From Minisyncoccota bacterium (lineage in GTDB: Bacteria > Patescibacteriota > Minisyncoccia > Phycocordibacterales > Phycocordibacteraceae): a stretch of DNA of 64,000 nucleotides. The notes below the pieces were generated by a model. That model saw nothing but the letters and a program-made list of their open reading frames with translations, had not been told where the DNA came from and ran no database searches. The translations under genes and the position numbers were made by a program. Of the stretch, positions 5,055 through 58,063 are shown piece by piece (the stretch's first letter is position 1; each line of letters opens with the position of its first letter). Location: positions 10,300 to 74,299 of the forward strand of contig JBBAAE010000003.1 in assembly GCA_041658485.1 (NCBI GenBank), in the 5' to 3' direction.

Positions 5055-5130
5055 AGCGTTTAGGGAAAAACTTTTTGTATTAGCTTTTGCTGTTCACACT
5101 AACCCCTAATCACTAACCCCTACCCACTAG
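5055..5130. repeat. REP-like intergenic repeat built from TTAGGG/CCCTAA-type units
   Basis: agcgtttaggg ... cactaacccctaatcactaacccctacccactag. Related copies at 11601, 55131, 56849 and 58038. Confidence 0.6.
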
Positions 5131-5151
5131 TTTGAGTGTTACACTTTCCAC

Positions 5152-5793
5152 ATGGACGATCGTGTCACGACATCTTTTATACCTAAGGCTGCGCTCAAGG
5201 TTGAACGCACTGAAGCCAAACGAGCAAGCCCTGTTGCACTCGTAAACATAATTGCTGGCGCGATTCTTATTGTTACCATTCTTTCTGCGGGTGGTATTTT
5301 TGGTTTTGAAAAATATTTAATACAATCGGTTGAAAGTAAACGGCAATCTTTGGAGCGTTCGCGTGCAGCCTTTGAACCTGCAACCATAAAAGAACTTTCG
5401 CGTCTTGATACAAGGATTGCAGCGGGGAGTACACTTCTTAAAAATCACACGGCTCTCTCACAGCTTTTTGATGAGCTTGAGAAGCTTATGCTGACCAATG
5501 TACGATTTAGTAATTTTTCTTATGACATCGCAGACCCAACCAGAACCTTACTCTCAGCATCCGGCGAAGCTGCTAGTTTTAATGCAGTTGCACTCCAGTC
5601 AGACGCATTTAGCAAGAGTAGTATCATTACCGATCCAGTGTTTTCAAATGTGAATATATCGAAGACGGGTAGCATACTGTTTGAATTCACCGCAGTCATT
5701 GATACGACTCGCATAGGGTACACAGGAGTGAGTGCTACGCCCACAGAAGCTCTACCTACAAGTGTGCCACCAACATCACCACAAGGAATATGA
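5152..5793 (+). CDS. pilN: Type IV pilus assembly protein PilN-like (single TM plus coiled coil)
   Basis: N-terminal TM segment (IIAGAILIVTILSAGGIF), then a coiled coil. Position follows pilM. ATGA overlap with the next gene. Confidence 0.6.
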   Translation: MDDRVTTSFIPKAALKVERTEAKRASPVALVNIIAGAILIVTILSAGGIFGFEKYLIQSVESKRQSLERSRAAFEPATIKELSRLDTRIAAGSTLLKNHTALSQLFDELEKLMLTNVRFSNFSYDIADPTRTLLSASGEAASFNAVALQSDAFSKSSIITDPVFSNVNISKTGSILFEFTAVIDTTRIGYTGVSATPTEALPTSVPPTSPQGI

Positions 5794-6332
5794 AACTTTT
5801 TACCCCAATTCTTTTTCTCGGTCTCGCTGGCGCAATATTTTTTTGGTATATAAACCCAACATATTTAGGTCTTCAAGGTTCATTAGCTGAACAAGCACAA
5901 TTTGATGCTGCACTATCGCGTTCTCGAGAACTTCAAGATGTCCGTGATCAACTCTTGAGTCGTTACAACACATTTCCACAGCCCGATTTAGCTCGCCTAC
6001 AAAAACTGGTTCCCGACCATGTTGATAATGTACGACTCATCCTTGATTTTGATAGCATGGCGACCAAATACGGTATGCGTGTCAGAAATGTAGTTATTGA
6101 AACCCCAAAAGAGCGAGTCAGTAGAGGACAAATAGGTCCTGATGAGAAGACATACGAGTCCGTTATCTTGTCTTTTAATGTCAGCGGTTCTTACGATACA
6201 TTCAGGCAATACCTCGCTGACCTAGAGAAAAGCCTCCGTCTTGTGGATGTGGTAGGTCTTTCTTTCACTGCAAACGAGACAGGTATTTACGAATTCACCT
6301 TCCATATTAAAACCTATTGGCTCAAACCATGA
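5790..6332 (+). CDS. pilO: Type IV pilus assembly protein PilO-like
   Basis: N-terminal TM, 180 aa, synteny pilM-N-O. ATGA overlap at both ends. Confidence 0.55.
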   Translation: MKLFTPILFLGLAGAIFFWYINPTYLGLQGSLAEQAQFDAALSRSRELQDVRDQLLSRYNTFPQPDLARLQKLVPDHVDNVRLILDFDSMATKYGMRVRNVVIETPKERVSRGQIGPDEKTYESVILSFNVSGSYDTFRQYLADLEKSLRLVDVVGLSFTANETGIYEFTFHIKTYWLKP

Positions 6333-6655
6333 TTGATTTATTTAAAAAATTCAAAACGGTCATCATAGTGGTACTCCTAATTGCCATTGCTTTTGTTATA
6401 TATTCATATTTCTTTGCGAAACCAGCCGAGCCTGTTTTGTCAGCACAAGCAGTGTCGGCTATTCCCTCTGTTGATCAGGACCTTATAGCAATCCTTCTTG
6501 AGCTTAAATCAATTAAACTCGATGACGCTATTTTCTCAGACTCTGCCTTTAAAAGTTTACAAGATTTTAGCCAAGAGCTCGTACAGGAACCGGTCGGACG
6601 CAACAACCCCTTTGCTCCACTTGGGGCTAAACAGCTCACTCCGCAAGTGAGATAA
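6329..6655 (+). CDS. Small single-TM pilus-locus protein (PilP-like position)
   Basis: ATG at 6329 overlaps the pilO stop. TM helix (VIIVVLLIAIAFVIYSYFF). Located between pilO and pilB. Confidence 0.4.
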   Translation: MIDLFKKFKTVIIVVLLIAIAFVIYSYFFAKPAEPVLSAQAVSAIPSVDQDLIAILLELKSIKLDDAIFSDSAFKSLQDFSQELVQEPVGRNNPFAPLGAKQLTPQVR

Positions 6656-6659
6656 CACT

Positions 6660-8438
6660 ATGGATGTTCTTTCCCTCCTCTCGGAGAAAGGTCTCGTTGA
6701 TAAAAATGCTCTTGCTGGCATTAAAGAAGAGATTGCAACAAGTTCCAAAACTCTTGAGAAGGCCCTCTTAGATAGGGGAGTATCTCCGAGTGACATTCTT
6801 AGTGCTCGGGGTGAGTATTACTCAGTACCAACGCATGAGATTGGTGAGGACGTAGTCCCTTTTGCTGTACTGAACTATATTCCAGAAGAATCTGCTCGTC
6901 ATTACCGCTTTGCCCCCCTCGCATTGAATGATGGCGTACTTGAGGTTGGTACTACTGACCCAGATAACCTTGATGCAGTAGAAGCACTTAATTTCATTGC
7001 TTCGCGCACAAATGTTCCGTATAAGATATTTCTTATCTCCGATGAAGACTTCGACAAAATTATTGGAATGTACAAAGGTCTTTCTGGTGAGGTTGGGCAG
7101 GCACTCGGAGAATTACAAAGCACGGCTGGAGATGATGATGAACTCAGTGTGGCTCTCGAGGAAGCGCCAAGCGAGAAACTTACTGATGCTGAAAAAGGAA
7201 ATGTCAAAATAAAAGAAGACGCTCCCGTTACAAAAATTGTTGCAACTATTCTTCGGTATGCCGTTGATGGTAAGGCGTCCGACATTCACATAGAACCAAC
7301 GCGCGAGGAATTGAAGGTTCGTTTTCGTGTTGACGGCGTCTTGTACACGTCTCTCCGACTACCAAAAAACCTAGAGCGTTCTGTTATTGCGCGTATTAAG
7401 GTACTTTCATCACTCAAGCTTGACGAGAGAAGAAAGCCACAAGACGGTCGTTTTTCTGCAACCATAGATGCGAGACGCGTAGACTTTCGTGTATCAACAT
7501 TTCCAACCTATCACGGCGAAAAGGTGGTGATGCGTATTTTGGATCGTCGACTTCAAACACAAAAACTCAATGACATTGGACTGACGGACGAAAACTCTGA
7601 AACGATTCGAAAAGCAATTAAAAAGCCTTACGGAATCATTGTTATTTCTGGTCCAACAGGTTCTGGTAAATCGACAACACTGTATGCGATGCTTCAGGAG
7701 CTTGATCGTGAGGGAATGAATGTTGTCTCTCTTGAAGACCCGGTCGAGTACGACATCGATGGGGTGTCTCAGTCACAGGTACGCCCAGAAATCGGCTATA
7801 CATTTGCATCGGGACTCCGCTCCATATTGCGTCAAGACCCGAACATTATTATGGTGGGAGAAATTCGCGACAAAGAGACAGCACAGCTTGCCATTCAAGC
7901 CGCACTCACTGGACACCTAGTTCTCACCACGCTTCACACCAATAATGCCATTGGTATCGTGCCCCGACTCGTTGACATGGGCGTTGACCCATACTTGATT
8001 GCGCCGACGCTCATTCTATCTATCGCTCAGCGACTTGTGCGTCTTCGCTGTGAAGATGCTGGTAAGCCTATTCCTTTTGAGGGTGCTGTTGCTACTATGA
8101 TTGAAAAGGAATTCGCTGATATTCCTGCTGAATTTAAGAAAAAACTTCCCGCAGCAAAAACTGTCTACGGTATTGCTCCATCTCCAACCTGCGCTAATGG
8201 TACTCGTGGGCGTGTTGCGGTGTTTGAAATGTTGCCTACATCGCCTGAACTAGAGCACATCATTCTTACTAACCCAATTGAAGATGAATTGTACAAAGTG
8301 GCGCGTGCACAAGGCATGTTCACGATGAAAGAGGATGCTATTATGAAAATGCTTAAAGGCACTATTCCTTTCGAAGAAGTGAACACGCTTGGTGGTGAAC
8401 TTCTTCGCGACGAGGAAGCCGACGAAAAATTGCCGTAA
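6660..8438 (+). CDS. pilB: Type IV pilus assembly ATPase PilB (GspE family)
   Basis: N-terminal GSPII_E N domain, Walker A GPTGSGKSTT, Asp box, His box (LVLTTLHTN), tetracysteine-like region. Confidence 0.9.
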   Translation: MDVLSLLSEKGLVDKNALAGIKEEIATSSKTLEKALLDRGVSPSDILSARGEYYSVPTHEIGEDVVPFAVLNYIPEESARHYRFAPLALNDGVLEVGTTDPDNLDAVEALNFIASRTNVPYKIFLISDEDFDKIIGMYKGLSGEVGQALGELQSTAGDDDELSVALEEAPSEKLTDAEKGNVKIKEDAPVTKIVATILRYAVDGKASDIHIEPTREELKVRFRVDGVLYTSLRLPKNLERSVIARIKVLSSLKLDERRKPQDGRFSATIDARRVDFRVSTFPTYHGEKVVMRILDRRLQTQKLNDIGLTDENSETIRKAIKKPYGIIVISGPTGSGKSTTLYAMLQELDREGMNVVSLEDPVEYDIDGVSQSQVRPEIGYTFASGLRSILRQDPNIIMVGEIRDKETAQLAIQAALTGHLVLTTLHTNNAIGIVPRLVDMGVDPYLIAPTLILSIAQRLVRLRCEDAGKPIPFEGAVATMIEKEFADIPAEFKKKLPAAKTVYGIAPSPTCANGTRGRVAVFEMLPTSPELEHIILTNPIEDELYKVARAQGMFTMKEDAIMKMLKGTIPFEEVNTLGGELLRDEEADEKLP

Positions 8439-8440
8439 TT

Positions 8441-8844: not shown

Positions 8845-9906
8845 ATGGAATACAAATCCGAACTTGAATCGCTTATAGATACTGTTATTGCTGAAGGAGC
8901 ATCCGATTTACATATAACTGCAAATTCCAATCCCATCATTCGCACTTCGGGTACGCTTATACCACTTCTGAAGCGTGTAAAATATACACCTGAAGATACT
9001 CTCGGAATCTTGGGCGCACTCATTCCGCCAGAAAAATTACAATCATTTAAGCAGGATCAAGAGGTAGATTTTTCGTATCAGTATAAAGATCAAATGAGGT
9101 TTCGTGGCAATGCATTCTTTCAGCAAGGAACAGTGTCCATTGCGCTTCGTTTGATTCCAAGAGAAATCAAGTCACTTGAAGAATTGGGGCTACCTCCAAT
9201 TCTTGAGACATTTTGCCAATTACAGCAAGGTTTTTTCTTGGTTGTGGGTCCTGTTGGTCAAGGAAAATCAACGACACTTGCGTCAATGGTGGAAAAAATA
9301 AACCAAACACGCACTGAGCACATTATTACTATTGAGGATCCGATTGAATACATGTTCACATCGAAAAACTCAATTATCAATCAGCGTGAAGTGCGACTCG
9401 ATACTAAAACATTTCAAGCGGCTCTTCTTTCCGCGTTCCGCGAAGACATCAATGTGCTCATGGTGGGGGAAATGCGTGGACCTGAGACCATGGCAGCAGC
9501 AGTGACCGCAGCTGAAACTGGACACCTCGTGCTTTCAACACTGCACACCAACAATGCTGCTCAGACCATTGATCGTATTATCGATACATTCCCAACGGGT
9601 CAGCAGGATCAAATCCGTCTTCAACTTGCTGCATCATTGGCAGGGATATTCTCACAGAGACTTGTTCCTAGGATATCGGGAGGCCTCATTCCTGCATATG
9701 AGCTTTTGATTAATAATGATGCAGTGGCAAATCTTATCCGTGAAAAGCGTACCCATGAAATTAATGCAGTGATTGAAACAGGTACGGAGTCGGGCATGAT
9801 TGACATGAATCGCTGTCTTGCTGACTTGGTGCGTCGCGGAGAAGTTACGCCGGAGAATGCACTTTCGAGAACATGGAATCCTAAGGCATTTTCGCGCCTT
9901 ATGTAA
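8845..9906 (+). CDS. pilT: Twitching-motility ATPase PilT
   Basis: Walker A GPVGQGKSTT, LVLSTLHTN, PilT-like length (353 aa). Confidence 0.9.
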   Translation: MEYKSELESLIDTVIAEGASDLHITANSNPIIRTSGTLIPLLKRVKYTPEDTLGILGALIPPEKLQSFKQDQEVDFSYQYKDQMRFRGNAFFQQGTVSIALRLIPREIKSLEELGLPPILETFCQLQQGFFLVVGPVGQGKSTTLASMVEKINQTRTEHIITIEDPIEYMFTSKNSIINQREVRLDTKTFQAALLSAFREDINVLMVGEMRGPETMAAAVTAAETGHLVLSTLHTNNAAQTIDRIIDTFPTGQQDQIRLQLAASLAGIFSQRLVPRISGGLIPAYELLINNDAVANLIREKRTHEINAVIETGTESGMIDMNRCLADLVRRGEVTPENALSRTWNPKAFSRLM

Positions 9907-9918
9907 TGTATAGATTGT

Positions 9919-11127
9919 ATGCTCTTTAAATACCAAGCAATTGATGCAAGTGGAGCAAAGCAAGAGGGGAGTATTGATGCAATATCCCGTGATGTTGCTA
10001 TTGCTTCGCTCCAGCGTCGCTCACTCACTATCTCAGCAATTGAAGAGTCTGATCCTGAAAAAAAATCTTTGTTGGGCGGTATTACTTTGTTTGAAAGTGT
10101 TACGAATCGCGACATTGTTTTATTGTCACGCCAAATCGCGACATTGTTCGAAGCTCAAGTGTCCGCGCTTCGCGTGTTTCGTCTTCTTGCATCAGAATCT
10201 GAGAAGCCTCTTTTGGGCCGAGTCTTGACTGAGGTAGGAGATGATCTTCAGTCAGGTAGTCCAATATCTAAAGCGTTATCAAAACACCCGAAAGTTTTTA
10301 GTGCATTTTATGTGAACATGGTGAAAGCTGGCGAGGAGTCAGGCAAGCTTGATGAGACATTTCTCTATCTTGCCGATTACCTCGATCGATCATACGAAGT
10401 GATGAGTAAGGCAAAAAATGCACTCATCTATCCCGCCTTTGTTATAGCGACATTTTTTGTAGTTATGATTCTTATGATGACCATGGTCATCCCACGTATT
10501 TCTTCCATTCTTATCGATGCAGGACAAGCAATACCCGTGTACACGCAGGTAGTTATATCTATCAGTAACTTTTTTGTGAACTACGGAGTGTTCCTTCTCA
10601 TACTTCTCGTTGTTGGAGGCATATTTCTTTTCCGCTATGCAGGTACTCCTCAAGGACGCGCATCATTCAGTGCTTTTGAGCTCGCTATTCCCTATGTGGG
10701 CGATTTATACAAGAAGCTTTATCTATCGCGCATCGCTGACAACCTTGCCACGATGCTTGGGTCGGGTATTTCTGTGGTGCAAGCTGTTGACGTGACGGCA
10801 AATGTTGTAGGCAATGCAGTCTATGCAGATATTTTGCAGGAAGTCGCAAATTCAGTGAAGGGAGGAGGTTCAGTATCTGGAGCTCTCGAAAAACGTAAAG
10901 AGGTACCTGGGATTATGGTTGCAATGATGCGCGTCGGTGAAGAGACGGGTGAATTAGGTAGTATCTTAAAGACTCTTGCGAAGTTTTATCAGCGAGAGGT
11001 TTCAACGAGCGTAGATACACTCGTTGGTCTTATTGAGCCAATTATGATTGTGACTTTAGGTTTGGGGGTTGGTATACTGTTGGCATCGGTCTTGGTGCCG
11101 ATCTACAATCTCTCCGCCGCTATTTAA
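9919..11127 (+). CDS. pilC: Type IV pilus inner-membrane platform protein PilC (GspF family)
   Basis: Two GspF repeats with 3 TM segments, 402 aa. Confidence 0.85.
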   Translation: MLFKYQAIDASGAKQEGSIDAISRDVAIASLQRRSLTISAIEESDPEKKSLLGGITLFESVTNRDIVLLSRQIATLFEAQVSALRVFRLLASESEKPLLGRVLTEVGDDLQSGSPISKALSKHPKVFSAFYVNMVKAGEESGKLDETFLYLADYLDRSYEVMSKAKNALIYPAFVIATFFVVMILMMTMVIPRISSILIDAGQAIPVYTQVVISISNFFVNYGVFLLILLVVGGIFLFRYAGTPQGRASFSAFELAIPYVGDLYKKLYLSRIADNLATMLGSGISVVQAVDVTANVVGNAVYADILQEVANSVKGGGSVSGALEKRKEVPGIMVAMMRVGEETGELGSILKTLAKFYQREVSTSVDTLVGLIEPIMIVTLGLGVGILLASVLVPIYNLSAAI

Positions 11128-11150
11128 AAGTGTATATTAATATAAATTCC

Positions 11151-11603
11151 ATGAACCTTGCTTCAACAAAACGAGGCTTCACCCTTATCGAACTCCTCGT
11201 TGTTATTGCCATCATCGGTATTCTTTCGTCCGTCGTGTTGGCATCTCTCAACACTGCTCGTTTGAAATCACGCGATGCGCGTCGTATTTCGGACATTAAG
11301 CAGTTGCAAATCGCACTCGCTCTTTATTCTGACTCAAACTCTTCAGCATACCCAACGACACTTGCAGGTCTTGCCCCTACCTACATCGGCGTTGTTCCTA
11401 CTGATCCTGTAGGCAACGTAGCCTATAGATACGCAGCACTTGGTACTGGCGCTTCTTGTACGAATTACCATCTCGGCGCAACCTTTGAAGAGACTACCAA
11501 CCAAGCTCTGACTGGAGACATCGATGCAGCTGCAGGTACCATTTGTACTGGCTCCAGTGCCGACTTTGCAGGTACGGACCCAATCTTTGATGTGAAGCCG
11601 TAG
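11151..11603 (+). CDS. pilA: Type IV major pilin with a short leader
   Basis: ATG at 11151 gives MNLASTKRG|FTLIELLVVIAIIGIL, the class III signal and N-methylation motif. Confidence 0.8.
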   Translation: MNLASTKRGFTLIELLVVIAIIGILSSVVLASLNTARLKSRDARRISDIKQLQIALALYSDSNSSAYPTTLAGLAPTYIGVVPTDPVGNVAYRYAALGTGASCTNYHLGATFEETTNQALTGDIDAAAGTICTGSSADFAGTDPIFDVKP

Positions 11604-11697
11604 GGAAGCAGGGGATAGCGTTTAGGATATAGGGGTTAGGGAAGAGCCCTGAGTTAGAAGTTCCCCTAAACACTAAACGCTACACCCTAACCCCTGC
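11601..11697. repeat. REP-like imperfect-palindrome repeat (TTAGGG/CCCTAA-type units)
   Basis: gcaggggatagcgtttaggatataggggttaggg ... cccctaaacactaaacgctacaccctaacccctgc; the two halves are inverted copies. Fills the pilA-pilD intergenic region. Confidence 0.65.
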
Positions 11698-11704
11698 TCT
11701 CTGT

Positions 11705-12550
11705 ATGCTTGAAGTACTTCTCCCACTTTTTGTGTTTGGTATAGGGCTATGCGTTGGGAGTTTTGTTAATGTTCAAATATTTCGCTTTGGTTTTGGCGAG
11801 CATGCTCGTTCTCGTTCATGTTGTATGGCATGTGACATGCCAATCTCTTGGTATGACCTGATTCCTATTTTCTCATATGTCGCACTGTCAGGCAGGTGTC
11901 GTGCATGTGGAAGCGCGCTTTCAACTCAATATCCATTGATTGAGGGTATAGTTGGATTTCTGTTTTTGGTAGCATTTTTAATAATGCCACCAGTCTTATC
12001 GCTTTGGTCAATTCTGGCATTCACCATGCTCCTTGTTTTTATTGCATCTTTGGTGGCCTTAGTTGTATACGACATACGACACACTTTAGTGCCTATGCCT
12101 TTTATCTATATGCTCGTAGGTTCTGCACTTCTCGCATCTATTTCACAAAGTTTGTTTAGCGATTCGTTTTTTCCACTTATTGATTCTCTTATTGGAGGGG
12201 CAATCTTGTTTGGTGGTTTTTTCGGTATTGTACTTGTTACCCGTGGGCGAGGTATGGGCGTAGGTGATGCGTATGTTGTTGGTGCGGCCGGCCTCTTGCT
12301 CGGACTGTTTCGAGGTATCGAATCAGTTATGTTCGGAGTCTGGTCTGCAACAATTGTTTATTTGATAATTTTTCTTTTATCCTCTATTCATTCAAAAAAA
12401 AGATTGTTGCCTCACGGTGCTCGGGTTACCATGAAAACAGAGTTGCCGTTCGTGCCATTTCTTGCTTTTGGCATTGGCCTCGCTCTCTTCACGACGCTTT
12501 CACCACTCTCACTTGGGTCGTGGCTCGCCAATCTATTATGGTTTCAATAA
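11705..12550 (+). CDS. pilD: Prepilin peptidase PilD (A24 family)
   Basis: N-terminal CxxC...CxxC zinc-binding domain (CMACDMPISW...CRACGSAL), multi-TM body with conserved Asp-containing loops. Confidence 0.85.
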   Translation: MLEVLLPLFVFGIGLCVGSFVNVQIFRFGFGEHARSRSCCMACDMPISWYDLIPIFSYVALSGRCRACGSALSTQYPLIEGIVGFLFLVAFLIMPPVLSLWSILAFTMLLVFIASLVALVVYDIRHTLVPMPFIYMLVGSALLASISQSLFSDSFFPLIDSLIGGAILFGGFFGIVLVTRGRGMGVGDAYVVGAAGLLLGLFRGIESVMFGVWSATIVYLIIFLLSSIHSKKRLLPHGARVTMKTELPFVPFLAFGIGLALFTTLSPLSLGSWLANLLWFQ

Positions 12551-13158
12551 AAAAAAAGCCTTCAGCTTTCAGCCTTCAGCTTTCAGGGGGGATTAAAAAA
12601 TCTTTTGTCGTTCGTGGTTTAACGCTCATTGAGCTTCTTGTAGTGATGGGTATTTTCTCTATCATTTCGCTCGTTGTTCTTGCTAATCACTCTCGCTTCA
12701 ATAGTTCAGTTCTTCTTGGAAGTCTTGCATATGATATTGCGTTATCGATTCGTGAAGCACAGGTGTATGGCTTGTCTGTAAAACAATATGGTAGTAATTT
12801 CCAAGTTGGATACGGTCTCCGTTTTGCCGGTGCATCCTCGTATACATTTTTTGTTGATACAAATGCAAATAAACGCTATGACAGCGGGGTTGATTCAATT
12901 GTGCAGACATTTTCAATTAGTCGTGGCCACACCGTGAAAAGTTTTTGCGGTATCACGGCGAGTGGAGTTCAGGAATGTTCTCCGAGCGGGATTGATCATT
13001 TAGATGTTGTCTTTTTTAGACCTGACCCAGATGCTCTATTTTCTTCCAATACTTCTACCGTGTATTCAAGTGGTCAAATAGTAGTTACATCTCCGACAGG
13101 GGAAACGCGCACCGTTAAAGTTGCTTCAACGGGTCAGATTTCGGTAACAAATCCATGA
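12538..13158 (+). CDS. Minor pilin (pseudopilin 1) with a long leader
   Basis: Leader MVSIKKKPSAFSLQLSGGIKKSFVVRG|LTLIELLVVMGIF. The leader is encoded by (GCYTTCA)x4 tandem heptamers. Overlaps the pilD stop. Confidence 0.7.
   Translation: MVSIKKKPSAFSLQLSGGIKKSFVVRGLTLIELLVVMGIFSIISLVVLANHSRFNSSVLLGSLAYDIALSIREAQVYGLSVKQYGSNFQVGYGLRFAGASSYTFFVDTNANKRYDSGVDSIVQTFSISRGHTVKSFCGITASGVQECSPSGIDHLDVVFFRPDPDALFSSNTSTVYSSGQIVVTSPTGETRTVKVASTGQISVTNP
12559..12586. repeat. Tandem heptanucleotide repeat inside the pseudopilin-1 leader coding region
   Basis: gccttca gctttca gccttca gctttca (4 units, 28 nt). Confidence 0.75.
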
Positions 13159-13847: not shown

Positions 13848-14414
13848 ATGAAAAACAACCAGCTTTCAGGTTTCAGCTTTCAGCTTTCAGGTTCTAGACA
13901 GGCGAACACAATTCGTGCTTTCACATTAATTGAAACATTTGTTGCAATTACCGTATTGTTAATTTCTCTCGTCGGACCTCTTTCAATTGCGGCACAATCT
14001 CTTCGTCTCGCATATTACGCACGGGATCAAGTGACTGCTTTTTATCTTGCACAGGAAGCGGTGGAATATGTGAGAGCCGAGCGCGATCAAAACTATCTTG
14101 CTAATGCGCCGTGGCTTACTAATCTTGGTGACTGTGTGGGGGCGTCATGCGTGGTTGATTTTCCTCGCTTTACCCACAGTGCATGTGGCGTTCTGAGTAC
14201 CTGCCCTCCTATATATATAAGTAGTGCAACAAAATTATACAATCAGGACGCAACGAGCGGGCCTGCATCAGCCTTTACTAGAGTCCTTTCTATTACGCCA
14301 GTTGTAGGCAGTGTTGATGAAGTAATAGTGAAGGTGAGGATCTCTTGGGTGTCGGTTGGAATCAATAGATCATTTCAGGTTACTGAGCATCTTTTTAATT
14401 GGGCAGGACCATGA
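13848..14414 (+). CDS. Minor pilin (pseudopilin 3)
   Basis: Leader MKNNQLSGFSFQLSGSRQANTIRA|FTLIETFVAITVLLISL. Leader encoded by 5 tandem heptamers. Confidence 0.7.
   Translation: MKNNQLSGFSFQLSGSRQANTIRAFTLIETFVAITVLLISLVGPLSIAAQSLRLAYYARDQVTAFYLAQEAVEYVRAERDQNYLANAPWLTNLGDCVGASCVVDFPRFTHSACGVLSTCPPIYISSATKLYNQDATSGPASAFTRVLSITPVVGSVDEVIVKVRISWVSVGINRSFQVTEHLFNWAGP
13861..13895. repeat. Tandem heptanucleotide repeat inside the pseudopilin-3 leader coding region
   Basis: agctttc aggtttc agctttc agctttc aggttct (5 units). Confidence 0.75.
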
Positions 14415-14947
14415 GTATGAAAGAAAAAACAGGTTTCAGGTTTCAGGTTTCAGGTGCGAGTTCATTAACTCCAAAAGCCTTTTCTCGTACCTCACGGGGA
14501 TTCACTCTTTTGCTCGCAGTATTGATTAGTAGCATACTCATTGCTATTGGTTCGGCAATTTTTAATATTCTTTCAAAAGAAATTATTCTTTCGTCGTCAG
14601 GTCGTGAGTCACAATTTGCTTTTTTTGCAGCTGACAGCGGAATCGAGTGCGCTCTCTATTGGGATACAAAACAGAATGCATTTGCAACAACATCAGCACT
14701 CACACAAGTTGCCTGTGGAGGCGGTTTGGCAGACTTAACGCGCACCTCAGGGGGCACTCTACTCCGACCAACATACACAACGGTGTTTTCTTTTCCGCTT
14801 GACGGAGGAGAGGCTAATCCTTGTATTACCGTGACGGTTGCCAAAACCTTTTATCCAACCGAAACAATTATTGCCTCGCAAGGTTACAACACATGCGTTA
14901 CGACGAATCCGCTCCGTCTTGAGCGCGCCATTCGAGTACAGTATTAA
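14411..14947 (+). CDS. Minor pilin (pseudopilin 4)
   Basis: MSMKEKTGFRFQVSGASSLTPKAFSRTSRG|FTLLLAVLISSILIAIG. ATGA overlap. Leader contains (AGGTTTC)x3. Confidence 0.7.
   Translation: MSMKEKTGFRFQVSGASSLTPKAFSRTSRGFTLLLAVLISSILIAIGSAIFNILSKEIILSSSGRESQFAFFAADSGIECALYWDTKQNAFATTSALTQVACGGGLADLTRTSGGTLLRPTYTTVFSFPLDGGEANPCITVTVAKTFYPTETIIASQGYNTCVTTNPLRLERAIRVQY
14431..14451. repeat. Tandem heptanucleotide repeat inside the pseudopilin-4 leader coding region
   Basis: aggtttc aggtttc aggtttc (3 perfect units). Confidence 0.75.
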
Positions 14948-15378: not shown

Positions 15379-17052
15379 GTGTCGATGACGCAGAATGATG
15401 CACTCACGATTTTGAAGACGGGCGCTAATGTTTTTTTGACGGGTGAACCTGGAAGCGGAAAGACTCACACTGTAAATGCATATGTAGCATGGCTTCGAGA
15501 TAAAGGAATTGAACCTGCCATCACCGCATCAACGGGCATTGCAGCGACACACATTGGAGGCATTACATTACACTCTTGGAGTGGTATCGGTATTGCAGAG
15601 CGTTTATCAGAGCAGGATATCGATGCCATTGCGGGGAAAGAACATGTGGCGAGGCGAATAACAAAATCGCGCATACTCATCATTGATGAAATTTCTATGC
15701 TATCGGGAGAAACCTTAGCGCTAGCAGAAGCAGTGGTACGAGAAGTACATCGAAGTCAGGAAGTGTTTGGTGGTATTCAGGTGATTTTTGTTGGTGATTT
15801 TTTTCAACTTCCACCAGTTTCTAAACGAGGTGCTTCGCGGGCATCTTTTGCTTTTGAGTCTGCCGTCTGGAAGGCAGTAAATCCAATTGTTTGTTACCTC
15901 ACTGAACAGCATAGGCAAGAAGATGAAATATTTCTTTCTGCCCTCGCTTCCATTAGGTCGGGCGTTGCTGACGAAGAGACCTTACTGTGTTTTCAAGACA
16001 GAGCGGTGTCTCCGAATGATGTCTCACATAAAATTCCGCGTCTCTTCGCACATAATATGGATGTCGATCGTATTAATGCGGACGCACTTGCCAAACTTAA
16101 AGGTCAGCCGACGGAATTTGCGATGACCGCACAAGGAAGTGACAATCTCGTCCTTGGCCTCAAGCGGGGATGTTTGTCTCCTGAGAAGCTTTTTCTTAAG
16201 AAGGATGCGGTAGTGATGTGTACGAAGAACAATCCGAACATTGGTTTTGCAAATGGTACGCTCGGAGTGGTTATTGGATTTAATGAAGAAAATACGTACC
16301 CAATTATAAAAACAAAAGATGGGCACGTATTTACTGTGGAACCTATGGAATGGGCTGTGGAGCAGGATGGAAAAGTGCGCGCACGAATTACTCAAGTACC
16401 ACTCAGGCTTGCATGGGCAATGACCATACATAAGAGTCAGGGGATGAGTATGGATGCTGCTGCTATAGACCTCTCTCAAGTATTCGAGCATGGGCATGGG
16501 TATGTTGCTCTCTCAAGGGTACGAACTCTCCGAGGGCTTCATCTTCTAGGGTGGAGCGAGCGGGCACTCTTGGTGCACCCGCGAGTGGCTGAACAGGATG
16601 CACAATTTCGTATTAAGTCTGAGGATGCAAGGGCAGTTTTCGAGGAGATGAGTGATGCAGAGCATGCGGGTATGGAAGAAAATTTTATTCGTGCATGCGG
16701 AGGAACACTTGAAGCAGAGAAGAATATTCACACTAAAAAAGAAAAATCCAGCACACTCTCTAAAACACTTATCCTGATACAGGAAGGTCACTCCATCTCT
16801 GATATTGCTAAGATACGATCGTTAAAAGTAGGAACACTTATTGACCATGTTGAAAAAATAGTAGAGCGGGGTTTATGTGAAGTGAATGATATACAAAATA
16901 TTTTTTCGATGAGTATTATAGAGGCCTTGCCGGTTATTCACGAGGTATTTGAGCGGGAAGGATCGGAACGACTTTCTCCGATATTTGAGCATTTTAAGGG
17001 CATGTACTCGTATGAAGATCTTCGTATTGCCCGTCTATTTTTTAAGCAATAG
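15379..17052 (+). CDS. PIF1/RecD-like ATP-dependent DNA helicase with a C-terminal HTH domain
   Basis: Walker A GEPGSGKTHTV, Walker B LIIDEISML, helicase motifs (VGDFFQLPPV, AMTIHKSQG). C-terminal HTH-like segment LIQEGHSISDIAKIRSLKVGTLIDHVEKIV. Confidence 0.8.
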   Translation: MSMTQNDALTILKTGANVFLTGEPGSGKTHTVNAYVAWLRDKGIEPAITASTGIAATHIGGITLHSWSGIGIAERLSEQDIDAIAGKEHVARRITKSRILIIDEISMLSGETLALAEAVVREVHRSQEVFGGIQVIFVGDFFQLPPVSKRGASRASFAFESAVWKAVNPIVCYLTEQHRQEDEIFLSALASIRSGVADEETLLCFQDRAVSPNDVSHKIPRLFAHNMDVDRINADALAKLKGQPTEFAMTAQGSDNLVLGLKRGCLSPEKLFLKKDAVVMCTKNNPNIGFANGTLGVVIGFNEENTYPIIKTKDGHVFTVEPMEWAVEQDGKVRARITQVPLRLAWAMTIHKSQGMSMDAAAIDLSQVFEHGHGYVALSRVRTLRGLHLLGWSERALLVHPRVAEQDAQFRIKSEDARAVFEEMSDAEHAGMEENFIRACGGTLEAEKNIHTKKEKSSTLSKTLILIQEGHSISDIAKIRSLKVGTLIDHVEKIVERGLCEVNDIQNIFSMSIIEALPVIHEVFEREGSERLSPIFEHFKGMYSYEDLRIARLFFKQ

Positions 17053-20467: not shown

Positions 20468-20606
20468 TGGTAGAGACTTTAAATACCGCCAATCCTCGGT
20501 GCGGTGGGAGTATCTGCATTAAAAAGGAGTTAAGAGGAAATCGAAGCGTTTTTTACTATACGCGTCTTCGTCGAAGTAAATTATCTCACAGGGTATACTT
20601 ACCGTA

Positions 20607-27511: not shown

Positions 27512-27778
27512 ATGAATGAAAAAGAATTGGAAAAGATTTTTAAAGCGTTTGCAAATCGTCGCCGACTTTTAATCGTTAAATTTTTGAAAAAGCATAAAGA
27601 AGCCTCAGTAGGGGAGGTTGCAAGAGAAATTAAACTTTCTTTCAAATCAACCTCTCGGCACTTAAGTGTTCTTGCGGGTGCGGGCATTCTTGATCGGGAA
27701 CAAAAAAGTATTCATATGTATTATTCAATTACGCCCACTATCCCTGAAGTCGCTCGTCGTATTCTTACCCTTCTATAG
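27512..27778 (+). CDS. ArsR/SmtB-family HTH transcriptional regulator
   Basis: FKAFANRRRLLIVKFL...ASVGEVAREIKLSFKSTSRHLSVLAGAGIL is a winged-HTH of the ArsR family. GGAGG RBS upstream. Confidence 0.75.
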   Translation: MNEKELEKIFKAFANRRRLLIVKFLKKHKEASVGEVAREIKLSFKSTSRHLSVLAGAGILDREQKSIHMYYSITPTIPEVARRILTLL

Positions 27779-27825
27779 ACACGATACATTCACCCATTCG
27801 TACGAATGGGTGAATGTATCGTGTC
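27778..27825. promoter_or_regulatory. 48-bp perfect palindrome (24-bp arms) centred on CATTCGTACGAATG
   Basis: gacacgatacattcacccattcgta|cgaatgggtgaatgtatcgtgtc overlaps the arsR stop. Candidate bidirectional terminator and second operator. Confidence 0.7.
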
Positions 27826-27870
27826 GTGTCGTGCTGTGATGTGATGTGGCTTGGCTTCGGGTGGGGTGGA
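27819..27870. repeat. GTG-rich tract with 5-nt periodicity
   Basis: gtgtc gtgtc gtgct gtgat gtgat gtggc ttggc ttcgg gtggg gtgga, between arsR and purM. Confidence 0.5.
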
Positions 27871-27961
27871 TTTAGGGTATATGGATGAGTGGTGGTGATC
27901 TGGTGTTGGAGGAACGTAAGGTGTTCTTAAATAAGGAGGGGTTTTGCGATATAGTAGGGGC

Positions 27962-32594: not shown

Positions 32595-32656
32595 AGAGAT
32601 CTCTTTGTAGGCAGATGTCCCGCTACCGTGTGGGAGTATAAGGGTATACTGTTTCT

Positions 32657-33220: not shown

Positions 33221-33235
33221 TTAGGGGTATACTAT

Positions 33236-39734: not shown

Positions 39735-39783
39735 TAAACTGTTTTTGGTGTCTGTAGAAGGTACATCTGAGAATGTGATCTCA

Positions 39784-39845
39784 AACCCCTGTATAGTATA
39801 AAATAACGACCGTTATTTTATACTATACAGGGGTTTTGTTTTATT
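39784..39845. terminator. 54-bp near-loopless perfect palindrome followed by a T-tract (terminator or protein-binding site)
   Basis: aaacccctgtatagtataaaataacg-ac-cgttattttatactatacaggggttt then tgttttattt. Confidence 0.7.
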
Positions 39846-43508: not shown

Positions 43509-43512
43509 AAAA

Positions 43513-43542
43513 AGCTGTCAGGTTTCAGTTTCCGGCTTTCAG
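43513..43542. repeat. Degenerate heptamer repeat x4, same family as the pilin leaders
   Basis: agctgtc aggtttc agtttcc ggctttc, directly after the stop codon. Confidence 0.6.
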
Positions 43543-43587
43543 TGAGGAAACGCTTTTATTTTTTAGGAGCTAAAACCTCTGACGTTG

Positions 43588-50151: not shown

Positions 50152-50201
50152 TCAAGGAGTATACCTTGCCCTATCATTTGTTGGGCAAATAAAATTCTTT
50201 A

Positions 50202-54298: not shown

Positions 54299-54350
54299 TT
54301 GTATGGAATGAGAACGAATCGCGTCTTAATTGACGGGCGATTTTGAATTA

Positions 54351-54707: not shown

Positions 54708-54717
54708 AACCAGACAT

Positions 54718-54735
54718 CATGGGTATATACCCATG
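54718..54735. promoter_or_regulatory. 18-bp perfect palindrome CATGGGTATATACCCATG overlapping the predicted TSS (candidate heat-shock operator)
   Basis: Lies 11 bp downstream of the -10 element, where CIRCE would normally sit. No CIRCE consensus is present. Confidence 0.5.
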
Positions 54736-54764
54736 CCTTTAGTTCTAACGAATTGATATCAGAT

Positions 54765-55121
54765 ATGGCTAAAACGAAAAAGACTTCGTCCACAAAAACT
54801 AGTGTTCAAACGAACACAGGAGTATCTATTCGCCCTTTGAGTGACCGGGTAGTAATCAAACCACTTTCAGCCGAGGAGGCTGGATCGCGAACTTTGTCAG
54901 GCATCATTATTCCCGATACAGCAAAGGAAAAACCTGAACAAGGGAAAGTTGTTGCAGTAGGTCCTGGTAAATGGGATGAAGATGGTGAAAAACGAATTCC
55001 AGTATCAGTAAAAATTGGAGACAAGGTAATGTTCTCAAAGTATGGCTACAGTGAAGTAAAAGTGAACGGTGTTGAGTATTTCATCGTAAACGAATCAGAC
55101 ATCCTCGCTGTTCTTAATTAG
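54765..55121 (+). CDS. groES: Co-chaperonin GroES with a 20-aa Lys/Thr/Ser-rich N-terminal extension
   Basis: MAKTKKTSSTKTSVQTNTGVS precedes the canonical IRPLSDRVVIKP...GDKVMFSKYG. Confidence 0.9.
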   Translation: MAKTKKTSSTKTSVQTNTGVSIRPLSDRVVIKPLSAEEAGSRTLSGIIIPDTAKEKPEQGKVVAVGPGKWDEDGEKRIPVSVKIGDKVMFSKYGYSEVKVNGVEYFIVNESDILAVLN

Positions 55122-55130
55122 CCAATAGCC

Positions 55131-55195
55131 ACTAGGGTATAGGGTTTAAATTTCCCTACACCTGATACCCTAAACCCTAATCACTAATCACTAAT
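55131..55195. repeat. REP-like repeat (TTAGGG/CCCTAA-type units)
   Basis: cactagggtatagggtttaaatttccctacacctgataccctaaaccctaatcactaatcactaa. Confidence 0.6.
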
Positions 55196-55206
55196 AAAAA
55201 CTAATC

Positions 55207-56847
55207 ATGGCAAAAAAAATTCTTTTTGAAGCAGATGCTCGAAACGCAGTCAAAACCGGTATCGACATTGTAGCGAGAGCGGTGAAAGTTACGCTTGGAC
55301 CTCGAGGACGCAATGTCATTCTCGATAAAGGCTACGGCGGTCCACATATGACGAACGACGGTGTCACTATCGCAAAAGAAATCACCCTCAAAGACAAATT
55401 TCAGAACATGGGCGCTGAATTGGTAAAGGAAGTTGCAAGCAAGACTAATGATATGGCAGGTGATGGCACCACCACTTCAGTTGTTTTGTTTCAGGCACTT
55501 GTTGATGAAGGAATGAAACACACAGCGATGGGCTTGAATGCTATGGGTATTCGCACCGGTATGGAGCACGCTGCAGAAGCTGCGGTGAAAGCACTCAAAT
55601 CAATGGCAAAGCCGGTTGCAGGAGACAATAAAGTCATCAAGCAGGTGGCAACTATTTCAGCAGAGTCTGAAGACATTGGTAAGACAATTGGTGAAGTCAT
55701 CAAAGAAGTTGGTCAAAATGGTGTGGTGACCGTTGAAGAGTCACAGTCGTTTGGTATTGAGAAAGAAGTTGTAGAAGGTATGGAGTTTGATCGCGGATAT
55801 GTGTCGCACTACATGATTACGAATCCTGAAAGAATGGAAGCGGAATATCGTGATGCACCAATTCTCGTTACCGATAAAAAAATCGCTTCAATTCAGGAAA
55901 TCCTTCCAATACTTGAGGCTATCGCAAAGACAGGCAAAAAAGAGTTGGTTATTATTGCGGACGATGTAGAAGGGGAAGCGCTCACAACATTTGTAGTGAA
56001 CAAACTTCGCGGAGCTTTCAGTGTGCTCGCAGTAAAAGCCCCAGGATACGGCGATAGAAAGAAAGACATGCTTGCTGACATTGCTTCGACAATCGGCGCT
56101 ACTGTTGTTTCTGAAGAAACAGGTATGACCTTAGACAAGGTGGATATTTCCGTTCTTGGTCGTGCACAGAAAGTTATTGCAACAAAAGACTCAACAATCA
56201 TTGTTGGTGGAAAAGGAAAGAAGTCCGCAATTGACGCACGTGTTGCCTCACTCAAGAAGCAACTTGAAGCAATCACTTCTAAGTTCGATAAAGAGAAAAT
56301 TGAAGAGCGCATTGCAAAGTTGTCAGGTGGCGTTGCAGTCATTCGCGTCGGTGCTGCGACAGAAACTGAAATGAAGTATTTGAAAGATAAGATTGAAGAT
56401 GCGGTCAATGCCACGAAAGCAGCTATTGCTGAAGGTATTGTTCCTGGGGGTGGTACTGCTCTCGTCAAAGCTGCAGCAAAAGCTGAAGCTGATGCAGATT
56501 GGAAAAGTATGTCCAAAGAAGAGGAAATTGGTTTCCGCATCGTTCTTTCGGCTCTTTTGAAACCATTGAAGCAAATTGCGATGAACGCAGGAAAAGAAAG
56601 CGGGGAAGTTATTGTTGAGGCAGTTAAGAAAGCAAAAGGATTTGCTGGATATGATGCAGTTAAAGACGAAATTGTTCCTGACATGATGATTGCAGGCATT
56701 ATTGATCCAGTGAAAGTAACTCGAGGTGGACTTGAACATGCCGTTTCTGCAGCAGCTATTCTTCTTACAACTGAAGTTGCTATCGCGGAGGAGCCTGAAG
56801 AGAAGAAAGAAATGAGTGGTGCTCCTGGAGGGGGAATGGATTACTAA
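55207..56847 (+). CDS. groEL: Chaperonin GroEL
   Basis: AVKTGIDIVARAVKVTLGPRGRNV..., 546 aa, Gly/Met-rich C-terminus. Confidence 0.95.
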   Translation: MAKKILFEADARNAVKTGIDIVARAVKVTLGPRGRNVILDKGYGGPHMTNDGVTIAKEITLKDKFQNMGAELVKEVASKTNDMAGDGTTTSVVLFQALVDEGMKHTAMGLNAMGIRTGMEHAAEAAVKALKSMAKPVAGDNKVIKQVATISAESEDIGKTIGEVIKEVGQNGVVTVEESQSFGIEKEVVEGMEFDRGYVSHYMITNPERMEAEYRDAPILVTDKKIASIQEILPILEAIAKTGKKELVIIADDVEGEALTTFVVNKLRGAFSVLAVKAPGYGDRKKDMLADIASTIGATVVSEETGMTLDKVDISVLGRAQKVIATKDSTIIVGGKGKKSAIDARVASLKKQLEAITSKFDKEKIEERIAKLSGGVAVIRVGAATETEMKYLKDKIEDAVNATKAAIAEGIVPGGGTALVKAAAKAEADADWKSMSKEEEIGFRIVLSALLKPLKQIAMNAGKESGEVIVEAVKKAKGFAGYDAVKDEIVPDMMIAGIIDPVKVTRGGLEHAVSAAAILLTTEVAIAEEPEEKKEMSGAPGGGMDY

Positions 56848-56848
56848 C

Positions 56849-56880
56849 AGGGTATAGGGGTTAGCGTTTAGGGTTTAGGT
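56849..56880. repeat. REP-like repeat (TTAGGG/CCCTAA-type units)
   Basis: agggtataggggttagcgtttagggtttaggt has three GGG runs plus a GGGG. Confidence 0.6.
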
Positions 56881-56894
56881 AAGAAAAGAAAATA

Positions 56895-56936
56895 ATCCAC
56901 AACAAAACCCCGCATTCGCGGGGTTTTGTTGTGGAT
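56895..56936 (+). terminator. Terminator hairpin after groEL
   Basis: atccacaacaaaaccccgc-attc-gcggggttttgttgtggat; a 19-bp stem with an internal T-run. Confidence 0.6.
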
Positions 56937-57404
56937 GCGTCGCCTCGAGTAACAATCGGAGCTCTTGACAAATATGATTTATAAGATTATTCTGCGGGGA
57001 GAAGTTTTTATATTTTATTTTGAAAAGTATGGGTTCTGAAACAGCTCCAAAAAAATGTGCACGCGCGGGTTGCAACAATTTCGCTGCACCACATGATTCT
57101 CTTTGTTTAGATTGCATAACAAGAGCAGTGAGTGGTCCTGATTAGTTTTTTTCAACCCCAGAGCGGTTTTTTTCTATTAGAGGTTCTATTTATTGTTATA
57201 GTATCGAAATTATGTCTCACAAAAAGCCTGAAAAACATTATCCAAAAGATCGACATGAGGCTCGTGAACTCAGGGGCAGTTTCAAGGGTGTGGCTAAATG
57301 CATTAGGGATGGGTGGGCGTCCGTTCTTCGCGAATGGCGTAGGAATGAAATATCAAAAGCATAAATTATCGGGAAAATTAAAAATCTGATACAATGTAAA
57401 GAAT

Positions 57405-57965
57405 ATGAATATTCTTTACATTGTTCTTGCTGTAGTCGCTGTCGTTCTTGCATGGCTTGTTGCCGCATATAACGGCTTTATTAGTTTGAGAAACCGAGCA
57501 AAAGAAGCGTGGTCTGACATTGAGGTACAGATGAAGCGTCGTTATGACCTCATTCCAAACCTTATTGAAACAGTAAAGGGCTACGCGACACATGAAAAGC
57601 AGGCATTTGAAAATGTTTCGAATGCACGCGCTACCGCTATGGGTGCGTCATCTGTTGCTGATCACGCACAGGCAGAAAATATGCTTACAGGAGCATTGAA
57701 GAGCATCTTTGCAATTGCAGAAGCGTATCCAGACTTGAAAGCAAATCAAAACTTCTTGGAATTACAACGCGAACTCTCTGATACTGAAAATAAAGTAATG
57801 GCATCTCGCCGTTTCTACAACACCAATGTTATGAGCTTGAATACTGCTATCGAGCAGTTCCCAGGAAACCTTATTGCGGGCCTATTCAAGTTCACACAAA
57901 TGGAACTCTTTGAGCTTGCCGAAGGCGAACAAGCTGCGAAACAACCTGTCGCAGTGAAATTCTAA
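57405..57965 (+). CDS. lemA: LemA-family protein
   Basis: N-terminal TM then the LemA domain (AYNGFISLRNRAKEAWSDIEVQMKRRYDLIPNLIETVKGY). Confidence 0.85.
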   Translation: MNILYIVLAVVAVVLAWLVAAYNGFISLRNRAKEAWSDIEVQMKRRYDLIPNLIETVKGYATHEKQAFENVSNARATAMGASSVADHAQAENMLTGALKSIFAIAEAYPDLKANQNFLELQRELSDTENKVMASRRFYNTNVMSLNTAIEQFPGNLIAGLFKFTQMELFELAEGEQAAKQPVAVKF

Positions 57966-57980
57966 TCCTCTGTTTCTTAA

Positions 57981-58001
57981 AAGCTGAAAGCTGAAAGCTG
58001 A
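57981..58001. repeat. Tandem heptamer (AAGCTGA)x3, reverse complement of the TCAGCTT pilin-leader unit
   Basis: aagctgaaagctgaaagctga directly after the lemA stop, followed by a ggtcc-cttc-ggacc hairpin. Confidence 0.7.
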
Positions 58002-58037
58002 ATGGTCCCTTCGGACCCGATGAAGCATCGCCTATTC

Positions 58038-58063
58038 GCTAAACCCTAACCACTAAACCCTAG
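58038..58063. repeat. REP-like repeat (CCCTAA units)
   Basis: ctaaaccctaaccactaaaccctagc just upstream of htpX. Confidence 0.55.

Follow-up and report, generated by a model that had tools for sequence, protein, structure and literature searches.

The subject of this work is a family of short repeats, and a 31-nt double-hairpin element nested in some of them, found in the spacers of a 64,000-nucleotide stretch of a Minisyncoccota genome (contig JBBAAE010000003.1, positions 10,300 to 74,299), which is called here the window and in which all coordinates are numbered from its first letter. The GroEL protein encoded in the window (55207-56847) is, in a homologue search, 99-100% identical to proteins from metagenome-assembled genomes (MAGs) of Candidatus Paceibacterota and the Parcubacteria group, and the window therefore belongs to a genome of the Candidate Phyla Radiation (CPR, or Patescibacteria). 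It contains a type IV pilus operon composed of pilM (3864-5003), two ATPase genes (6660-8438 and 8845-9906), pilC (9919-11127), a pilin gene (11130-11603), a prepilin peptidase gene (11705-12550) and four pilin-like genes, as well as purine-synthesis genes, groES and groEL, lemA (57405-57965) and htpX (58067-58954). The first-pass annotation of the window listed five intergenic copies of a dispersed repeat next to pilM, the pilin gene, groES/groEL and htpX, and the family is real and has the neighbours that it named. The words that it quoted are present in all five sites and lie far above chance: the word TAGNGNNTAGNGNNTAG has 12 exact matches in the window (0.00 expected) and CTAANCNCTAANCNCTA has 13 matches with at most one mismatch (0.07 expected), every one of them within the five spacers. 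The limits of the sites had to be redrawn, since the first site begins at 5007 and not at 5055 and includes the separate element at 5020-5052, the third begins at 55122, and the fifth is a part of a composite spanning 57976-58063. The features of the five sites are the following, with G-type denoting arrays that present their TTAG-bearing, G-rich strand on the strand given and C-type those that present the CTAA strand.

5007-5021, plus strand: G-type units AGCGTTT AGTGGTT A, starting 4 nt past the pilM stop codon.
5020-5052, plus strand: 31-nt double-hairpin element, TA GGCGATG CCA CATCG GGTCC GTAG GGACC AT, nested in the G-type array (62.3 bits).
5053-5066, plus strand: continuation of the G-type array, TTTAGCG TTTAGGG.
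5094-5130, plus strand: C-type array CACTAAC CCCTAAT CACTAAC CCCTACC CACTAG, 22 nt 5' of the ATG at 5152.
11601-11643, plus strand: G-type arm, whose first bases are the pilin stop codon TAG and which pairs with 11660-11697.
11660-11697, plus strand: C-type arm, ending 8 nt 5' of the prepilin peptidase ATG (11705).
55122-55149, plus strand: G-type arm directly 3' of the groES stop codon, with TAG at 55125, 55133 and 55140.
55153-55205, plus strand: C-type arm reaching the groEL ATG (55207), one 7-nt unit longer than in the related loci L122/L123.
56849-56880, plus strand: G-type array of 4.5 units with no partner arm, 2 nt past the groEL stop codon.
56895-56936: terminator hairpin that follows the groEL-3' array.
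57976-58002, plus strand: (AAAGCTG)3 array of a second heptamer family, past the lemA stop codon.
58002-58034, minus strand: second, reversed copy of the 31-nt element (62.0 bits).
58033-58063, plus strand: C-type array TTCGCTA AACCCTA ACCACTA AACCCTA G, ending 3 nt 5' of the htpX ATG (58067).

The period of the repeats is seven at all five sites, both in the period-7 rows of Tandem Repeats Finder and by autocorrelation. When periods 5 to 12 were compared, a clear excess over shuffled sequences was seen at period 7 only, the other periods being at about chance level. The window contains 8 period-7 arrays against 0.1 in shuffles, and the related loci L119 and L120 contain 4 and 2, respectively, against none. 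The telomere hexamer, proposed earlier as the building block, is thus not the unit of these arrays: TTAGGG occurs 23 times in the window, which is the chance level (20.5 +/- 4.6 expected), and the commonest unit is CTAAACG, i.e., CGTTTAG on the G strand. Across the 485 units collected from CPR loci, CTAAACG (66) is followed by CTAAACC (47), CTAACCC (24) and CTAAACA (22). The unit reads N-TAG-N-G-N on one strand and CTA-N-N-C-N on the other, with an invariant core TAG..G (CTA..C on the opposite strand), so only four of its positions are conserved; the position table of the 485 units, C(0.86) T(0.90) A(0.78) a n C(0.67) n, is skewed towards the pattern with which the arrays were collected. Individual arrays consist of 3-7 mixed units and are internal: in several independent assemblies they are flanked by conserved bacterial genes. 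Telomeric repeats can be rejected on this account, the arrays being neither long and homogeneous nor at the ends of linear replicons, and synteny across the independent assemblies excludes contamination with telomeric DNA. Altogether the window carries eight arms at the five sites and five other arrays in 64 kb, and 92 arrays were collected from 372 kb of related CPR DNA, hereafter the clade. The five sites are heterogeneous tandem heptanucleotide simple-sequence arrays. With at least three head-to-tail 7-nt units occurring more often than expected by chance, dispersal over many non-coding loci and the strand polarity published for heptamer simple sequence repeats (SSRs), the arrays belong to a known class, the intergenic heptanucleotide SSRs that resemble the short tandemly repeated repetitive (STRR) sequences, now in a CPR genome.

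Since TTAG and CTAA include the stop codons TAG and TAA, any array of at least three units carries stop codons in all six reading frames, and the arrays are confined to spacers for this reason: 2 of the 92 clade arrays, and none of 103 in other phyla, lie inside open reading frames (ORFs). Their orientation is related to the adjacent genes. On gene maps that are crude longest-ORF maps, the 3' end of the CTAA strand is found near a start codon of the same strand or a stop codon of the opposite strand in 69 cases against 15 (92 arrays, 372 kb), and its distance from the same-strand start codon has a mode of 4-7 nt. After stop codons 12 clade arrays are G-type and 3 are C-type, and before start codons 14 are C-type and 1 is G-type; the G-rich strand thus starts a few nucleotides past stop codons and the G-poor strand ends a few nucleotides before start codons. 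The same polarity was found among the matches listed from other phyla (59 versus 24), and exactly this rule has been published for other G-rich heptamers (PMC4692102).

TTAG-type arrays occupy 24 of the 98 co-directional spacers of 40-200 nt. Twelve of these 24 have a C arm only, three a G arm only and nine both, and the G arm comes first in all nine. The two-arm spacers are predicted to fold better than their shuffled versions (median z -3.8, with 89% below z -2), the base of the long hairpin adjoining the stop and start codons. The strongest example is 11601-11707, where the two arms have the same unit order with an offset of one unit; its predicted stem runs from the pilin stop codon to 4 nt before the next ATG (dG -48.2 kcal/mol, z -5.2). 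The spacer between groES and groEL (55119-55209) is also predicted to fold (z -3.2), and the groEL-3' array is unpaired and followed by the terminator. Hence the inverted, hairpin-forming halves that had been proposed for several copies hold at 11601-11707 and 55119-55209, and the predicted folding is not significant at the pilM and lemA-htpX sites.

The genome in which these spacers are found is compact and has no Shine-Dalgarno (SD) signal. SD motifs are not enriched at start regions (11/65, with 11/65 in coding controls), and G is depleted 5' of start codons in the window. A -10-like promoter box, GGTATACT, is enriched in the window (5 occurrences versus 0.9) and is located at 20592-20599, 32643-32650, 33226-33233, 50158-50165 (minus strand) and 11071-11078; four start codons lie 2-7 nt past the end of such a box, and this placement, together with the lack of SD enrichment, suggests that first cistrons are leaderless in this organism, i.e., that their mRNAs have no leader. 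Among the co-directional junctions of the window 28 of 55 are no longer than 15 nt. In the pilus operon 11 of 13 are no longer than 12 nt, and both long ones (148 and 101 nt) are filled with arrays. Consensus scans of the four operon spacers placed in them neither a promoter nor an intrinsic terminator, and the possibility that the array hairpins serve as either was therefore rejected. For the idea of complementarity between the anti-SD sequence and the arrays, the fetched loci were searched for a 16S rRNA 3' end, and they contain none.

The orthologous spacers of relatives were compared at syntenic loci L119, L120 and L121 (GroEL identity 96%, 90% and 83%, respectively), L122/L123 and L124 (GroEL 99%, nucleotide identity only about 87-92%), and L140:

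groES-groEL, window: G and C arms.
groES-groEL, L122/L123: the array of the window less exactly one 7-nt unit.
groES-groEL, L119: different CTAA-type array running into the ATG.
groES-groEL, L121: 2-nt junction.
groES-groEL, L120: hairpin made of another heptamer family (GCTTGAA.../CTTCAAC...), z -4.1.
groES-groEL, L124: unrelated spacer of about 150 nt.
groEL 3' side, window: G arm of 4.5 units.
groEL 3' side, L119: diverged orthologous array with no GGG.
groEL 3' side, L124: shorter array.
groEL 3' side, L122/L123: array with an inserted 31-nt element.
groEL 3' side, L120 and L121: nothing.
lemA-htpX, window: (AAAGCTG)3, element and C arm.
lemA-htpX, L122 and L120: C units and element.
lemA-htpX, L119 and L124: GGCTTTC/AAGCTAG hairpin.
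lemA-htpX, L121: 2-nt junction.
pilA-pilD, window: heptamer hairpin.
pilA-pilD, L140: terminator and promoter between the corresponding flanks, with the pilin duplicated.

At about 90% nucleotide identity arrays are thus gained, lost, resized or replaced at orthologous spacers. The comparison with relatives that the first-pass annotation had called for shows copies in sister genomes, often in the same spacers and with their sequence in rapid flux, so the family is not limited to the five copies that it listed. Variation by a whole unit was seen once, as a clean 7-nt difference between the window and L122/L123; an all-against-all alignment of the loci yields this single clean indel of one unit because the relatives are only about 86-93% identical. 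Two of the replacements deserve a description of their own. In the groES-groEL spacer of L124 the heptamer arrays are replaced by an unrelated insert of about 120 nt (9864-9990), which contains inverted repeats of its own (ttcttagaccctgttaaa ... tttagcagggtgaaag...ctaag) and may be a different miniature element. In L140 (1490-2200) the major pilin gene is duplicated and the spacer between pilin and peptidase genes contains a terminator hairpin and a GGGTATACT box where the window has its heptamer hairpin.

The two copies of the 31-nt element in the window, 5020-5052 (plus strand) and 58002-58034 (minus strand), are 82% complementary over 57 nt. A metagenome scan with GGCGAYGNNNCRTCGGNTCCGNAGGGANCA returned 27 stretches, one 316-kb contig alone carrying at least 10 copies, and metagenome stretches and syntenic loci together gave 40 distinct copies. 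Their alignment describes an element of 30-31 nt made of two adjacent covarying 5-bp hairpins. At the two paired positions left free by the search pattern, the pair 13-19 is UA in 19 copies, CG in 17, UG in 1 and another combination in 2, and the pair 24-35 is AU in 19, UA in 10, GC in 9 and another combination in 1. Overall 98.2% of the paired cells are complementary, and the observed values were reached by none of 500 shuffles. The pairs are almost exclusively of the Watson-Crick type, which is compatible with a structure required on the two strands alike or at the DNA level. Nearly all copies are embedded in TTAG-type arrays, where they are preceded by an invariant TA and always point the same way with respect to the G strand. 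The element follows the polarity of the arrays and is found on the sense strand after stop codons and on the antisense strand before start codons.

The element is variably present at orthologous sites: the groEL-3' array and the minor-pilin leader array have none in the window and carry it in L122/L123 and in L140, respectively, and L146 has two copies where L138 has one. Compound copies were also observed (L129, 6480-6580; L130, 9767-9832; L144, 4108-4175; L148, 4730-4800), in which a full copy, its stem being GTTCC/GGAAC, has a second, 5'-truncated copy attached behind it at a constant joint (…GGGAACAG|CTTCRTCGG…); the compound of L129 lies in the loop of another copy of the element. A covariance model of the element found 45 matches in the 372 kb of clade DNA and none in the array-bearing loci of other phyla (762 kb). 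A scan of viral contigs for the element gave no match. Rfam gave no match for the window at gathering thresholds and none for 4980-5160 at E-values up to 10, and neither the arrays nor the element are thus known RNA families. No gene associated with the element was found.

With many near-identical copies at unrelated loci, a constant context and presence/absence differences at orthologous sites, the element resembles the small dispersed repeats (SDRs) of Nostocaceae, which are 21-27 nt long (Elhai et al. 2008, as described in PMC5861425 and PMC4390886). In so far as these two accounts describe them, the SDRs are its closest analogue, being very small, inserted in a precise context, patchy among relatives and devoid of an encoded enzyme; the CPR element is longer (30-31 nt), has two covarying hairpins and targets TTAG-type arrays and not HIP1. 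Some SDRs, too, may sit in heptamer arrays. Judging from its sequence and distribution, the element behaves like a miniature mobile or gene-converted element restricted to the clade, and we put it forward as a candidate, possibly new, element of this kind. Its spread would require either an enzyme or gene conversion between arrays, and gene conversion is an equally good possibility.

The arrays themselves extend far beyond the clade. A four-unit pattern, searched in one genome per species, matched at least 118 stretches, many of which reach well past the pattern, and the matches listed come from Bacteroidota, Acidobacteriota, Planctomycetota, Cyanobacteria, Chloroflexota, Gemmatimonadota, Proteobacteria, Firmicutes and a MAG of CPR Sungbacteria. 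Arrays of this type are present in many phyla and are therefore not specific to one lineage, contrary to what had been suggested for the family. Our literature search found no paper linking heptamer repeats to CPR. Heptameric SSRs are over-represented in many bacteria, and slippage linked to the footprint of DNA polymerase has been suggested as the reason, according to work cited in PMC4692102. Close counterparts of the present arrays are the GGGNATC arrays of Xanthomonas and the GGGGA(T/C)T arrays of Nostoc, which are heterogeneous, intergenic and sometimes inverted (Rehm et al. 2015, PMC4692102). Sister species have them at matching spacers, where their length and sequence vary (PMC4692102). 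The CPR arrays share with them the 7-nt heterogeneous intergenic arrays of few units, the inverted pairs, the polarity rule and the shared spacers; they differ in having the TTAGNGN unit, mostly broken G runs and no canonical G-quadruplex (G4) motif, in abutting stop and start codons, and in hosting the 31-nt hairpin element.

Another comparison is offered by the TAACTGA arrays of Beggiatoaceae, Cyanobacteria and Bacteroidetes, which contain a stop codon in the forward orientation (MacGregor 2015, PMC4679880) and adjoin start codons upstream, over the expected ribosome-binding site, in SD-poor genomes (PMC4679880). The likeness lies in stop-bearing heptamers placed directly 5' of start codons in genomes poor in SD motifs. 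The unit is different, however, and the TAACTGA arrays are not predicted to fold and have no reported complementary arm after the stop codon, whereas the CPR spacers include two-arm hairpins. The STRR sequences of heterocystous cyanobacteria, heptanucleotides for which we rely on the citation of Mazel et al. 1990 in PMC4692102, similarly comprise, as far as that citation goes, several tandem families dispersed in the non-coding DNA of one genome, the phylum and the unit sequences being different. The plant telomere heptamer CCCTAAA/TTTAGGG is identical to one array unit, the second most common, but telomere repeats lie at chromosome ends and the present arrays are short, internal and mixed in units between bacterial genes.

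How such arrays arise and persist can be outlined as follows. They would be born and remodelled by replication slippage and inverted duplication, and their orientation would then be filtered by selection at the level of mRNA. Internal start codons that depend on SD-independent initiation or re-initiation would need a G-poor, unstructured leader in front of them. In the two-arm spacers a terminating ribosome, which covers the first nucleotides past the stop codon, would open the stem and expose the downstream start codon, thereby coupling the translation of the two genes; instead of this or besides it, the hairpins may stabilise the upstream mRNA. The 31-nt element is nested in the arrays as a separate component. 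We consider this whole reading, from slippage and inverted duplication to mRNA-level filtering and coupling or stabilising hairpins, to be probable, with a good deal of room for doubt.

Several observations weigh against it. The regions 5001-5150 (z -1.8) and 57963-58069 (z -1.1) fold no better than shuffled sequences, and many arrays are single-armed. The argument from slippage relies on the one clean 7-nt indel, the other orthologous arrays being too diverged to align at an average nucleotide identity of about 90%, and the array density in the 372 kb is biased upward since most of these CPR loci were fetched through the 31-nt element. In longest-ORF maps the predicted starts are biased towards the arrays because of the stop codons inside them; the starts of groEL and htpX are unambiguous. 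The distinction between polarity set by transcription and polarity set by replication is based on two minority-strand cases, both of which follow the gene. The preference for the G strand past stop codons, seen even where there is no partner arm, is not covered by the leader argument and could come from avoidance of Rho or from RNA stability. Finally, the transcription, folding and translational use of the spacers are predicted from the DNA sequence.

It is also possible that the arrays are functionless by-products, i.e., selfish or neutral products of slippage whose polarity means only that harmful orientations were removed and whose hairpins are a side effect of inverted duplication. The rapid turnover (L121, L124 and L140 have an unrelated spacer or lack the spacer altogether), the free variation of the unit sequences and the fact that no regulatory role was found for similar repeats (PMC4692102) all agree with this, but a genome streamlined to the degree described above nevertheless keeps array spacers of 85-150 nt in essential operons, the order of the arms is strict and the arrays closely abut codons, so that we regard this explanation as unlikely, though worth keeping in sight. 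A different view is that TTAG-type arrays and the double hairpin form one composite, non-autonomous mobile cassette that is inserted or gene-converted into junctions. The nearly constant embedding of the element in arrays in a fixed orientation, its presence/absence polymorphism and its nested copies would be expected of such a cassette, as would the exchange, between the window and L140, of a whole hairpin cassette for a terminator-plus-promoter module between the corresponding flanks. Most arrays, however, have no element (there are two elements and eight arms in the window), arrays without it occur in many phyla, and neither a target-site duplication nor an encoded enzyme was seen, which makes the composite cassette a doubtful proposition. 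The more far-reaching version of this idea, in which arrays and the transposase-less element act as self-propagating cassettes that rebuild gene junctions (G arm past the stop codon, C arm ahead of the start codon, the element being optional) and replace SD-based or overlap-based coupling and even terminator-promoter modules in a leaderless translation system that lacks SD signals, is speculative and, in our estimate, rather unlikely. If true, it would place the element among the smallest mobile DNAs known and would make it the first one described in CPR bacteria.

The readings of the first-pass annotation fare less well. It had proposed that the G-rich strands form G4 structures, and 11602-11646 and 56849-56880 indeed have three or four GGG runs with G4Hunter scores of 1.2-1.5. 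Just past the pilin cluster the window also encodes a PIF1-like helicase with a C-terminal HTH_40 domain (15379-17052), whose link to the arrays is hypothetical; Pif1 helicases are G4 unwinders. Related heptamers, the GGGAATC and GGGGAYT repeats, form G4 in vitro (PMC4692102). Against G4-based regulation, the G3N1-7 x4 motif is absent from the window, the scores of the G arms (0.4-1.3) are within the range of other regions, 51 of which score at least 1.2, the commonest units (CGTTTAG, TGTTTAG) interrupt the G runs, the groEL-3' array of L119 lacks GGG altogether, and the C arm, where present, provides a strongly competing duplex hairpin (-48 kcal/mol); a G4 function is thus improbable. Even less probable, to the point that we give it very little credence, is a repetitive extragenic palindromic (REP) or REPIN family mobilised by a REP-associated tyrosine transposase (RAYT). 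REPs are conserved palindromes of 20-40 nt with a GTAG/CTAC foot and an associated RAYT gene (PMC3116915). Like REPs, BIMEs and REPINs, the CPR copies are short, extragenic, dispersed, in some cases inverted and hairpin-forming, and found at gene ends, and the GNAG loops of the element recall the GTAG motif. These copies, however, consist of variable tandem 7-nt units with no conserved full-length palindrome of 20-40 nt, and GNAG sits in the loop of the element and not at the foot of a hairpin. The associated RAYT that had been suggested was looked for and not found: Pfam identified no transposase, integrase, reverse transcriptase or Y1/RAYT domain in about 60 ORFs of the window, and a phmmer search with RayT of E. 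coli against the 372 kb gave a best E-value of 1.4. The arrays could also be binding sites for an RNA- or DNA-binding protein that reads TAG..G at a 7-nt spacing, as the conservation of only four unit positions would allow and as was suggested for the TAACTGA repeats (PMC4679880). No candidate protein was identified, and the presence of other heptamer families in the same spacers of relatives argues against one specific reader, so there is little to recommend this explanation.

If the arrays arise by slippage and are filtered at the level of mRNA, as we favour, their predicted effects would be on translational coupling and mRNA stability. CPR genomes are among the most streamlined ones, yet 85-150 nt of arrays are retained in the type IV pilus, groESL and lemA-htpX operons, which are essential. 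The arrays belong to a widespread and functionally unexplained heptanucleotide class and follow the strand rule seen in Xanthomonas, Nostoc and many other phyla. Their direct contact with stop and start codons, in an organism that does without SD motifs, turns the purpose of heptamer repeats into a more concrete question. Besides the five sites, the candidate miniature mobile element and heptamer arrays in three prepilin leaders have come to light. The latter are among the five other arrays of the window:

2843-2878, plus strand: AGGTTCT x3 with two further degenerate units, between a stop codon and a terminator hairpin.
12557-12586, plus strand: CAGCTTT/CAGGTTT-type array (units AGCCTTC/AGCTTTC), minor pilin leader-peptide region.
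13860-13890, plus strand: CAGCTTT/CAGGTTT array, leader-peptide region of a second minor pilin.
14430-14455, plus strand: CAGGTTT x3.7 array, leader-peptide region of a third pilin-like gene.
43512-43545, plus strand: degenerate AGCTGTC/AGGTTTC/GGCTTTC array after a stop codon at 43508.

The arrays at 12557, 13860 and 14430 lie between an upstream in-frame ATG and a prepilin cleavage motif of the G|FTLIE type; three consecutive pilin-like genes hold such leader arrays (12538-12600, 13848-13925 and 14417-14500). Each is an SSR with a unit not divisible by three in the 5' coding part of a gene for a surface structure. Since a 7-nt slip would shift the pilin reading frame, phase variation is possible, and we regard the three prepilin leader arrays as candidate phase-variation switches for the pilus, a structure presumably used by CPR cells on their hosts. 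In the one orthologue available, that of the first leader array in L140, the 31-nt element is present, the difference is 27 nt and the frame is open.

Other features of the window are mentioned here for completeness. A tRNA-Ser(GGA) gene was found at 59855-59940 by ARAGORN and was not reported by the Rfam gathering scan. Repeats of its 3' end (24-40 nt), at 60153-60197 and 61386-61430, bracket a gene for a FIST-domain protein (60144-61385). L122 and L124 have no such gene between htpX and the VKOR gene, and the region 59855-61430 looks like a small tRNA-targeted insertion. Three perfect intergenic palindromes, unrelated to the heptamer arrays, are located at 39783-39836 (26+26 nt with a 2-nt loop), 27778-27825 (24+24) and 809-850 (21+21), the latter two being loopless. 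Directly after the second of them, at 27826-27880 and 5' of a gene at 27944, there is a degenerate G/T-rich run with 5-6-nt units, GTGTC GTGTC GTGCT GTGAT GTGAT GTGGCTTGGCTTCGGGTGGGGTGG.

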